Positions 28,144-52,130 of a stretch of DNA of 52,130 nucleotides are shown one piece after another. The DNA is taken from the NCBI GenBank assembly GCA_016187105.1, contig JACPKK010000001.1:1-52130 (forward strand). Direction: 5' to 3'. Position 1 is the first letter of the stretch. Each line of letters starts with the position of its first letter. The notes under the pieces were generated by a model. The model did no database searches and was not told where the DNA came from. It saw nothing but the letters and a program-made list of their open reading frames with translations. This DNA comes from Candidatus Curtissbacteria bacterium (GTDB taxonomy: Bacteria > Patescibacteriota > Microgenomatia > Curtissbacterales > GWA2-41-24). Position numbers and translations under genes: made by a program.

Positions 28144-28758
28144 ATGGAAATTTCTAAAAGTGAGTTAAGAAAAAGCTTAATTGCAAAAAGATCTGGTCTT
28201 TCCACAAAAAGTGTTGAAGAAAAAAGTAGACAGATTGCAAAAAAGATGATGGAAAGCGATCTTTTTTTAAAAACAAAAATTGTTTCGGCATATTTACCAA
28301 TCCGCGGCGAGGTCAGCACAAAACCAATTATTAATTTTTTAATAGAGGCAGGTGTCGAGGTCTATCTGCCAAAATCTTTTGGCGAGGAATATAAGCTGGT
28401 GAGGTTTAAATCGTGGAATGATCTGGAAAAAGGACCTTATGGAATTTTAGAACCTCTTTCTCCTAGTCATCCTGAATTTAGTTCAGGATCTAAAAAGATG
28501 CTGAAACAAGTTCAGCATGACAAAGTGGATATAGATTTAGCATTTATTCCTGGCGTGGCTTTTGATAAAAATGGCGTAAGACTTGGATACGGCAAAGGAG
28601 TTTTTGACAGGCTTTTTGCAAAAAGCGAAGCGACTTTGGTGGGGCTGGCTTATGAATTTCAGATTGTTGACGAGCTTCCCCGAGAAGAACATGATTTGGT
28701 AATGGATTATGTTGTAACCCCATCCTCTGTCATCCTGAGCGGAGCGAAGGATCTATAA
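28144..28758 (+). CDS. 5-formyltetrahydrofolate cyclo-ligase (MTHFS), with an internal and a C-terminal repeat-derived segment
   Basis: LRKSLIAKR..., YLPIRGEV, GPYGILEP, DLAFIPGVAFDKNGVRLGYGKGVFDR. The start was trimmed to ATG 28144. Confidence 0.8.
   Translation: MEISKSELRKSLIAKRSGLSTKSVEEKSRQIAKKMMESDLFLKTKIVSAYLPIRGEVSTKPIINFLIEAGVEVYLPKSFGEEYKLVRFKSWNDLEKGPYGILEPLSPSHPEFSSGSKKMLKQVQHDKVDIDLAFIPGVAFDKNGVRLGYGKGVFDRLFAKSEATLVGLAYEFQIVDELPREEHDLVMDYVVTPSSVILSGAKDL
28466..28521. repeat. Twin-hairpin element inserted in frame in MTHFS
   Basis: Two 8-bp stems: ATCCTGAA-N5-TTCAGGAT (28469..28489) and ATGCTGAA-N5-TTCAGCAT (28498..28518). Together they encode SHPEFSSGSKKMLKQVQHD. Confidence 0.7.
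28729..28753. repeat. Type E-like module GTCATCCTGAGCGGAGCGAAGGATC forming the MTHFS C-terminus (VILSGAKDL)
   Basis: Related to 37090..37127 and 38926..38957. Confidence 0.65.
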
Positions 28759-50630: not shown

Positions 50631-51185
50631 TCACCGACTTAAATACTTCTTGAGTTTTTTGAGGGCGAGGGCGCGGTGGGAAATTTTGTTTTTTTCTACC
50701 GGGGACATTTGGGCATAAGTTTTTTTAAAGCCGTTTGGAACAAAAACTACGTCAAAGCCAAAGCCTTGATTTCCTTTTGCTTTGGGAACTAAATGACCAT
50801 GGATCATTCCTTTAAATATTTTTAAAGTTCTGCCGTCGTAAATGGCAAGGGCATCAGTAACCTTGGTCCTAGTGTTTTTACTTTTAATGAGGCTGACGGT
50901 TTTTTCGGCACCTAAAGTTTTTAGGAAATACTTAACAAATGGCCCGGGCAAGCCATCTAGCGATTCGATCTGGAGACTTACGTCTGTGACTAAAACCGGT
51001 TTTTTGATTTTTTCGTAAGCTGCTTTGGCCTTGGCAGTAATAACTTCATCTAAGTCTAGTGACTGAATTTCTGGAACGTCGATTTTTGAAACTTTATGGT
51101 TTGTGCCCAGAATTTCGTTAATCTCTTGTAGTTTATGGCTATTGGATGTAACTACGACTAAGTCTTTAAGTTTAAACTTACTCAT
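50631..51185 (-). CDS. rdgB: Non-canonical purine NTP pyrophosphatase (RdgB/HAM1 family)
   Basis: 184 aa. Motifs: VVVTSNSHKLQEI, GLPGPFVK, GFGFDVVFVP, KNKISHRALA. Confidence 0.85.
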   Translation of the reverse strand: MSKFKLKDLVVVTSNSHKLQEINEILGTNHKVSKIDVPEIQSLDLDEVITAKAKAAYEKIKKPVLVTDVSLQIESLDGLPGPFVKYFLKTLGAEKTVSLIKSKNTRTKVTDALAIYDGRTLKIFKGMIHGHLVPKAKGNQGFGFDVVFVPNGFKKTYAQMSPVEKNKISHRALALKKLKKYLSR

Positions 51186-52130
51186 ACTCTATCGTTGCCG
51201 GGGGTTTTTGGGTGATGTCGTAAACGACGCGGTTGACGCCGCGGACTTCGTTGACGATGCGAGAGGAAACTTTTTCTAGCAAATCATAGGGAAGTTTAGT
51301 CCAGTCTGCTGTCATAAAATCGACAGTGTCAACGCATCTTAGAGAAACAATGTAGGAGTATGTACGGCTATCCCCCATGACCCCCACAGATTTGACAGGA
51401 AATAGGGCGGCGAGGGCTTGGCCTACCTTTAGATCCGAACTCTGTGAGGATCGCAAGGAAGTTTTGTTAGAAACTTCCTTATTATATAGACCCGATGATT
51501 TAAGTTCCTCAATAAAAATCTCGTCGACCGATTTTAAAATGTTGAGTCTTTCTTCTGTCACTTCTCCAAGGATTCTTATAGCGAGACCCGGTCCGGGAAA
51601 CGGATGGCGGTTTAAAAAATCTTGGGGAATCCCTAATGCTTTTCCAATTAGTCTTACTTCATCTTTGTAAAATTCCGCAAGCGGCTCGATAAGTTCAAGT
51701 TTTAGACCCGATGGCAAAGTGACATTGTGATGGCTTTTAATTTTGTCGGCATGCTTTGAAGGCTGGGCTGATTCGATACGGTCGGGGTAGATAGTCCCTT
51801 GGCCAAGGTATCTGATCCGTCTGTCGCCGGACAGGTCTTTTCCAAGTTTTTTTGCTTCTTCCTCTAATATTTTGAAATAAAGTTTTGCGATAGTTTTTCT
51901 TTTTTCTTCGGGATCGGTTATTCCTTTTAAAGCTTTGACGAAAGTTTCACTTTTATCTGCAACCTTAAAATTTTTGAACTTAACTTTTTCAATAACATTT
52001 TTTAAATCAGATAAATCGTAATTTCTCAAAAGACCGGTATCGATAAAGAGAAGATGGAGCTTTGATCCGATTGCTTCTTTTAGAAGCGCCGCAGCAACAA
52101 GCGAATCTACTCCGCCGGAGATTGCCATTA
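51178..52130 (-). CDS. guaA: GMP synthase (glutamine-hydrolysing), ATP-pyrophosphatase and dimerisation domains; N-terminus outside the window; 17-aa in-frame repeat insertion
   Basis: AISGGVDSLVAAALL is the P-loop. Other motifs: LGQGTIYPDRIES, HHN, VGVMGDSRTY, KPPATIEYE. Confidence 0.9.
   Translation of the reverse strand, partial: MAISGGVDSLVAAALLKEAIGSKLHLLFIDTGLLRNYDLSDLKNVIEKVKFKNFKVADKSETFVKALKGITDPEEKRKTIAKLYFKILEEEAKKLGKDLSGDRRIRYLGQGTIYPDRIESAQPSKHADKIKSHHNVTLPSGLKLELIEPLAEFYKDEVRLIGKALGIPQDFLNRHPFPGPGLAIRILGEVTEERLNILKSVDEIFIEELKSSGLYNKEVSNKTSLRSSQSSDLKVGQALAALFPVKSVGVMGDSRTYSYIVSLRCVDTVDFMTADWTKLPYDLLEKVSSRIVNEVRGVNRVVYDITQKPPATIEYE
51427..51477. repeat. 51-nt twin-hairpin element inserted in frame in guaA
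   Basis: The minus strand reads GGAAGTTT-CTAACA-AAACTTCC then GATCC-N11-GGATC. Together they encode EVSNKTSLRSSQSSDLK. The tail TTCGGATCTAAAG resembles TTCAGGATCTAAAAAG in the MTHFS insertion. Confidence 0.7.

Follow-up and report, generated by a model that had tools for sequence, protein, structure and literature searches.

The stretch of DNA analysed here (the window, 52,130 nucleotides of an uncultured groundwater bacterium, Candidatus Curtissbacteria) ends inside guaA, and this gene carries an in-frame insert of 51 nt that folds into two hairpins. We regard the insert as probably a shortened copy of a small, non-autonomous family of hairpin repeats, similar to the Rickettsia palindromic elements (RPE) and to REP sequences, that is tolerated in a permissive loop of the protein. 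Our data support a family that is new and structurally distinct while of a known kind, i.e., that of RPE- or REP-like hairpin repeats able to live in frame. It is confined almost wholly to a Curtissbacteria-like family of CPR bacteria. The preliminary description, made from the letters of the window alone, had proposed a discrete palindromic element inserted in frame in guaA. This proposal held: the extra segment is lacking in solved GuaA structures, the gene of the sister species has an empty site, a foreign contig skips exactly the 51 nt, and related copies lie at unrelated loci, some of them in frame in other genes. The features of the window are the following.

51178..52128, minus strand: C-terminal 316 codons of guaA, with the ATP pyrophosphatase and dimerisation parts; the gene leaves the contig at its end
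51426..51480, minus strand: whole repeat copy of 55 nt, made of AAGG, P1, a GCG linker, P2 and a CTAAAGG tail; match to the covariance model R1
51455..51480, minus strand: hairpin P1, with a 10-bp stem (51480-51471 with 51464-51455) and a 6-nt loop; encodes K-E-V-S-N-K-T-S-L
51432..51452, minus strand: hairpin P2, shortened type A, with a 5-bp stem (GATCC/GGATC) and an 11-nt loop; the inner stem of other copies is gone
51426..51431, minus strand: conserved 3' tail TAAAGG, whose AAGG is a 4-nt direct repeat of the AAGG at the 5' end
51427..51477, minus strand: 17 extra codons, EVSNKTSLRSSQSSDLK, amino acids 218-234

The open reading frame at 51178-52128 is the C-terminus of a GMP synthase: 13 GMP synthase chains matched it, e.g., 3tqi with an E-value of 1.5e-91. 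In structure-sequence alignments that otherwise run end to end, the GuaA of Coxiella (3tqi) and of Escherichia coli (1gpm) leave one gap, exactly 17 residues long, facing EVSNKTSLRSSQSSDLK, which confirms the extra residues reported in the preliminary description. The flanks were called strongly conserved there, and the gap is indeed clean in these two proteins, but the loop is not invariant: the GuaA of Neisseria (5tw7) has its own, shorter extension at this position. Hence, the position is permissive. The boundaries are as clean as had been claimed, yet a 4-nt ambiguity remains. The window allele reads TATAAT-AAGG..(47 nt)..AAGG-TA, and the net insert of 51 nt can be placed at 51426-51476 or slid up to 51430-51480 through the AAGG. 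Of the two stems proposed, GATCC (51452-51448) with GGATC (51436-51432) stands as described, and P1 is longer than claimed, with 10 bp between AAGGAAGTTT (51480-51471) and AAACTTCCTT (51464-51455). The ends of the copy, AAGGAAG.. and ..GGCCTAAAGG, are not inverted repeats. Compared with dinucleotide shuffles, the insert folds unusually well both as RNA (z = -2.9, one of 200 shuffles as good) and as DNA (z = -3.3, none of 200).

The insert is probably translated as part of GuaA. Splicing or ribosomal bypass were set aside because the guaA copies that we found (51, 63 and 66 nt) are multiples of three, free of stops, and share their phase with copies in NAD kinase genes. In an AlphaFold2 model built on an alignment of 22 sequences (mean pLDDT 74), residues 218-231 are predicted as coil without secondary structure (pLDDT < 50), while the helix 192-211 and the strand 237-251 that flank the insert are kept. 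The simplest reading of this model is that the 17 residues would form a disordered surface loop.

We label the source genome of the window G000 (88.7% complete) and the other species of its genus G001; further G labels denote genomes of the same family. Of the 24 other genomes of the family, 22 gave a GuaA homologue, and most have no copy of the repeat in the gene. In G001 the site is uninterrupted (TATAATAAGGTA, Y-N-K-V). We compared populations using assembled contigs of public runs. The insert is carried across the site by two contigs from probable source samples (X1 and X4) and by one of a 2017 study (X5); the latter has nine differences from the window in 374 nt and none within the element. 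In a drinking-water metagenome unrelated to these samples, a contig of 213 nt (X6) lacks precisely 51426-51476, and its junction has a 4-letter ambiguity. This contig is 99% identical to the window gene-upstream of the insert and 77% identical on the other side (window 51318-51425), so it comes from a related organism or is a mosaic allele, and does not represent the same population. In X5, eight of the nine differences fall within 34 nt (51373-51406), at every third base. Divergence is thus concentrated just gene-downstream of the insert in both X5 and X6, and there may be a recombination boundary at the element.

A BLAST search with a 76-nt region against the source genome returned only the region itself, and finding relatives therefore required searches with patterns and covariance models. 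The motif AAGGAAG..CTTCCTTGCG occurs three times in G000 and three times in G001, always at different loci, and the reversed pattern used as a control gave no match. All copies have a common layout, in order AAG-P1-CTT, GCG, P2 and CTAAAGG, and they range in size from 51 to 102 nt. They differ in their second hairpin, which is either GGTCCTCGTC..tip..GACTGCGGGCC (type A) or a long hairpin GAGAAY..GAAATCGTTGTTTC..RTTCTC in which the loop GAAATCGTTGTTTC is conserved (type B). The window copy is a type A without the inner P2 stem.

We built the covariance model R1 from eight copies, with the window copy among the training sequences; the latter scores 61.4 bits (E = 1.9e-12, model positions 1-64). 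Outside the training set, 31 more copies were matched with E ≤ 4e-4. Copies are present in 27 of the 32 genomes of the family at E ≤ 1 (one to eight per genome), and about 18 genomes have matches at E ≤ 0.001. In G021 we found three near-identical copies of 55 nt, one of them in different flanks. Outside the family, R1 matched two of 143 sampled genomes of the class, both from one other family (f31), and one of these matches is a clear type-B copy. A pattern search at the level of the order, which added two genomes, gave no match there. The strict pattern, applied to one genome per species, retrieved only two known guaA copies and two matches in Desulfobacteraceae; we attribute the latter to chance, as they lie in homologous coding sequence and lack a matching P2. 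We also rejected the site G000:C25:5775 as a member of the family: it shares GCGATCC..GGATCTAAAG, lacks the AAG..CTT P1 and has no R1 match. No covariance model of Rfam 15 matched the copies, either at gathering scores or at E-values up to 1-10.

Most copies are intergenic. The three motif copies of the source genome and the copies that lie in frame in genes are listed below.

guaA of the window, minus strand: the copy described above
G000:C46:11707-11791: copy in the infA-rpmJ spacer, antisense to the operon
G000:C56:10544-10622: type-B copy in the 1.07-kb 23S-5S spacer, 6 nt before an ORF of 146 amino acids
guaA, three genera: in-frame copies, sense
N-terminal part of NAD kinase, G016 and G041: in-frame copies, sense; the NAD kinase of G000 has no copy
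N-terminus of a GT2 glycosyltransferase, G001 and G014: in-frame copies, antisense; the orthologue in G000, at C37, has a clean empty site facing the G001 copy
End of a YbaK-like ORF: in-frame copy

The ORF beside the 23S-5S spacer copy has no Pfam match and gave no lead to a nuclease; the spacer itself extends over G000:C56:10054-11127 (L033). No locus with a copy is common to G000 and G001. In addition to the empty guaA site of G001, a copy on its contig C9 (L078) corresponds to a seamless empty site in G000, at C49:3732/3733. The six sense copies within genes are all read in one phase, as K..SLRSS..GLK. This phase is free of stops in 15 of the 25 type-A copies, compared with three and seven in the other two sense frames.

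The fold of the repeat is supported by covariation. In an alignment of 39 copies, 98.7% of the stem cells form standard pairs and ten of the twelve stem pairs have changes on both sides, a value reached by none of 500 shuffles, with the caveat that this alignment was fitted to the R1 model. When partners were slid, pairing fell to 28-66%. A MAFFT alignment of eight sequences, made independently of our hand, has an outer P2 stem that is 100% paired, with four of its five pairs covarying, and covariation is seen throughout the family in P1 as well. In 22 copies a U.G wobble forms the middle pair of the outer P2 stem (GGTCC with GGGCC). As this wobble would be a C-A mismatch on the opposite strand, the fold is specific to a single strand of the element.

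Strong covariation and a conserved wobble that implies a strand-specific fold are also what one would expect if the repeat were a structured RNA module useful to the host, e.g., a processing or stability site of the RNase III type, or a switch masking a ribosome binding site, with the guaA copy kept by selection on the RNA fold. We judge this unlikely, but it accounts for several observations. Three genera have guaA copies with 29 core nucleotides in common, while the third-codon positions of the flanks are only 40-50% identical, i.e., their synonymous sites are saturated. This indicates that the element is under constraint or has repeatedly entered the same site, and a neutral passenger should have decayed. 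The low copy number (one to eight per genome) also speaks against the reading of a tolerated hairpin repeat. Type-B copies lie within highly expressed operons: the rpsC-rplP spacer in four genomes, the 3' end of rplL in three, and the 23S-5S spacer. The tail and the flank of a copy often form AAAGGAG shortly before a start codon, and in P1 an arm resembling a Shine-Dalgarno sequence is paired with one resembling its anti-Shine-Dalgarno. In the rpsC gene of G022 a synonymous change goes together with a compensatory one in the 3' arm (GGT/ACC), and the type-B copy in family f31 extends the motif to another family. On the other hand, about nine of the some 31 copies with a clear context are antisense to the surrounding genes, including the in-frame GT2 copies and the infA-rpmJ copy of G000. 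Furthermore, the two species of one genus share no site, the guaA copy is absent from most genomes and decayed in G011, and no Rfam family matches. If the core were nevertheless maintained by selection, the repeat would rather represent an RNA motif of ribosomal operons that has escaped recognition.

The copies between rpsC and rplP bear on another, rather improbable reading, that of a guide-directed mobile element. It would have a constant core (GCG-P2-CTA) and a 3' arm of P1 that selects the target through base pairing or is formed from it in this way; part of the first hairpin would in that case be host sequence, and direct repeats of variable length would be left behind. At rpsC-rplP, the gene's own end (K-G-E-T-stop), homologous to that of genomes without the element, serves as the 5' arm of P1, and the 3' arm is complementary to it. 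Across copies, the stretch downstream of the CTA tail is similar to the 5' arm of P1, with a mean of 5.59 matches against 4.94 ± 0.19 in permutations (none of 2,000 as high). Direct repeats at the flanks measure between 4 and about 17 nt, and 10-17 nt at some loci, e.g., in the NAD kinase gene of G016. At guaA, the only sequence in common with the target is AAGG (6 of the 7 nt of AAGGTAG). We searched for an empty rpsC-rplP junction in G000, G001, G003, G012, G021 and G017; all have other, unrelated spacers, and none has a clean empty site. If this reading were true, CPR bacteria would contain a tiny programmable hairpin element, perhaps driven by Y1 transposases of the RAYT type, that could insert in frame, or restore the ends of genes, without a lethal effect on essential ones.

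Almost every genome examined has its own version of the rpsC-rplP spacer (G000:C46:3720-3825; in L097-L101, the stretch right before position 1501). The spacer is filled by unrelated repeats, with GAATT/CCGAA-type hairpins, tracts such as 'ggaaattagaaatt', and A-rich 'caaaaatcaaa' units, and it appears to be a hotspot of repeat insertion. A different arrangement was observed at rplL in G018, G008 and G016 (L080:1438-1660; L061:567-790; L085, with the element at 1501-1589 on the minus strand). There, the stop (AAG TAA) starts a type-B copy, and the element is followed by a duplicate of the final ~20 codons (..EAKTKLEAAGAKVELK and a stop). The two ends of the gene are about 30% different in DNA, with the peptide and the stop kept in both. 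The arrangement may stem from an element that brought a replacement for the gene end, from a Campbell-type duplication, or from translational bypass.

The presence of the insert in distant genera raises the question of whether GuaA ancestrally had a longer loop, inherited vertically and lost in most lineages, with the palindrome and the similarity to other loci being secondary. Two genomes of two other genera (G017 and G018) have guaA inserts of 63 and 66 nt at the identical site. Their P1 stem is identical to that of the window copy, and their P2 is longer. The extension at the same place in Neisseria (5tw7) indicates that GuaA tolerates lineage-specific additions there, and the flanking 4-nt repeats and the hairpins would favour precise loss. 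The guaA of G011 retains 15-18 nt, AAGGAAG followed by GATCCTCA and AAAG, and from its sequence this remnant looks like an internally deleted copy. We computed the GuaA tree with the insert removed. G000, which has the insert, and G001, which lacks it, are sisters (support 99/98), and a tree holding the insert-bearing proteins together as a clade was rejected (AU test, p = 0.0017), so that an ancestral loop would need many independent exact losses. The same architecture is also found at about 35 loci other than guaA, in other genes as well as in spacers, and the guaA copy of G017 is closer to the glycosyltransferase copy of G001 than to the guaA copy of G000. We thus hold an ancestral loop to be very improbable. 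It had been anticipated that extra residues shared with distant GuaA proteins lacking the palindromic DNA would speak against an insertion; the two other genera that share the residues have the same hairpin DNA.

Finally, a chance palindrome or slippage product without relatives, which the shortness of the window copy and its P2 stem of only 5 bp might suggest, is refuted by the pattern counts with their empty reversed controls, by R1 matches with E-values of 1e-13 to 1e-5 at many loci and by covariation, with fold z-scores of about -3 also against it.

Under the reading that we favour, a tolerated hairpin repeat, the element would have entered guaA next to an AAGG, between the Asn-Lys and Val codons, and in the one sense frame least often interrupted by stops. 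With such an entry, it would be transcribed and translated with guaA as a Ser/Lys-rich disordered surface loop, and GuaA would tolerate the extra residues at this position. The copy would be of no use to GuaA and would persist as tolerated selfish or REP-like DNA, with spread or loss proceeding through a strand-specific single-stranded intermediate.

The foremost candidates for moving the repeat, still unproven, are the RAYT-like Y1 transposases. Genes for Y1 (HUH) transposases (PF01797) are present in 26 of the 32 genomes of the family (one to nine each), including all 16 high-quality genomes; there was no match in the 88.7%-complete assembly of the source genome. One of these proteins has its best match to the NCBIfam family 'REP-associated tyrosine transposase', at 71 bits for a cut-off of 80. 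Around four Y1 loci we found no R1 copy better than E = 0.96. The coordinates of Y1 genes and R1 copies are rarely close, and the closest pairs elsewhere are 1.5-5 kb apart. The RAYT-like Y1 genes encode 200-260 amino acids (e.g., L089:1270-1872, minus strand). Their presence in most of the family, with up to nine per genome, is unusual for genomes of ~1 Mb, and fits the many hairpin repeats of these genomes.

Among known systems, a close parallel is with RPE-1 to RPE-10 of Rickettsia (Ogata et al. 2000, 2002, summarised in PMC10969869). These are dispersed elements, many of which interrupt unrelated housekeeping genes in frame and are translated into a conserved peptide at sites that the fold can accommodate; they lack a known transposase of their own, and their hosts have small reduced genomes (PMC10969869). 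The repeat described here is likewise a dispersed palindrome with in-frame copies, in guaA, NAD kinase, GT2 glycosyltransferase and YbaK-like genes, and in the AlphaFold2 prediction its peptide lies at the protein surface and is compatible with the fold. It differs from RPE in size (51-102 nt, compared with ~100-150 nt), in copy number (one to eight per genome, compared with dozens), in having two hairpins with fixed AAG..CTTGCG and CTAAAGG landmarks, in being mostly intergenic, and in its CPR host. The relation would therefore be one of working alike, by analogy, and not of membership.

The repeat also resembles the REP/RAYT systems (PMC3733652), in which short hairpin repeats are sometimes intragenic and in frame, and RAYT-like Y1 genes abound in the same genomes as our repeat. 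Some REP families similarly lack a linked transposase (PMC3733652). In contrast with the GTAG- and CGTC-tagged REP, our copies have no unpaired GTAG or CGTC (TGTC/CCTC) tag, no stem of 8-9 bp starting with A-T pairs, and no CCA tail, and the definition of the CGTC-tagged REP further includes a loop of 4-5 nt (PMC3733652). Moreover, the four RAYT-like genes that we tested are not flanked by the R1 repeat. An Ssn-related motif (pattern of PMC11893778) matched none of the 39 copies and occurs three times in the whole source genome, compared with two to six times in shuffled sequences. We also excluded a MITE: the ends of the repeat are not terminal inverted repeats, and the direct repeats of 4 to about 17 nt do not correspond to a duplication of fixed length.

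The IS200/IS605 family and its miniature derivatives reportedly move by a single-strand 'peel and paste' transposition. As described for that family, our repeat has no terminal inverted repeats, two subterminal hairpins, a strand-specific fold and seamless empty sites. It adjoins AAGG and ends in AAGG, and CCTT, the complement of AAGG, stands at the foot of both hairpins, which is said to be the guide position in IS608. Nevertheless, its two hairpins are unlike each other, and direct repeats reach 17 nt at some copies, while peel-and-paste is said to make none. In addition, the four copies on the 527-kb contig G001:C7 lie in both orientations, which argues against a strict targeting of the lagging strand. 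The Correia elements of Neisseria (CREE/NEMIS) have terminal inverted repeats of 26 bp, duplicate a TA and are targets of RNase III. They are comparable to our repeat as small repeats in operon spacers that fold in the transcript and can supply expression signals; our copies have neither the 26-bp inverted repeats nor the TA duplication.

In-frame hairpin repeats have been described in the literature mainly for Rickettsia, and our literature search found no paper joining CPR bacteria with RPE-like in-frame repeats. The present family thus provides an independent, structurally distinct case for CPR bacteria, with genomes of ~1 Mb, carrying hairpin repeats within essential genes. Such inserts inflate and distort protein alignments and can break assemblies, and guaA is here split between two contigs. 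The family also offers clean material on the movement of hairpin repeats that lack a tag: seamless pairs of filled and empty sites, a wobble that fixes the strand, and, at some loci, a first hairpin of which one half is host coding sequence.

The preliminary description had likened the tail of the guaA insert, TTCGGATCTAAAG, to that of an insert in the MTHFS gene of the window (28466-28521) and suggested comparing the two elements. The tail is present and matches that insert at 14 of 15 positions, but equally good local matches exist elsewhere in the 52-kb window, which places the similarity within window-wide chance, and R1 has no match in the MTHFS insert. A kinship of the two inserts was thus not upheld. 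The second hairpin of the MTHFS insert (window 28498-28518) reads ATGCTGAA-ACAAG-TTCAGCAT, then GAC. Two look-alikes at G000:C55:443-520 have an identical loop and stems that differ yet stay complementary. These compensatory changes place the second MTHFS hairpin in another family, and together with the C55 sequences it looks, from the sequences, like a separate small hairpin family.

The guaA fragment of the window has two further peculiarities. The first 429 nt of another contig of the source genome (G000:C48:1-429) overlap window 51679-52128 (amino acids 1-150 of the fragment) with 90-94% protein identity and run into the N-terminal half of guaA. This overlap looks like a strain variant, and the break of the assembly inside guaA seems to be due to such variants. 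Contigs of public runs show many variant sites and loose ends at 51894-51930. A second in-frame indel lies at 51817-51837 (minus strand): its 21 nt encode DLSGDRR and form the palindrome CTGTC-CGGC-GACAG. Variant forms of this indel occur in four other genomes (..SSERR, ..PAGRQ), G003 has LPAGRQG elsewhere in guaA, and CCTGCCGGCAGG-type palindromes are present elsewhere in the source genome.
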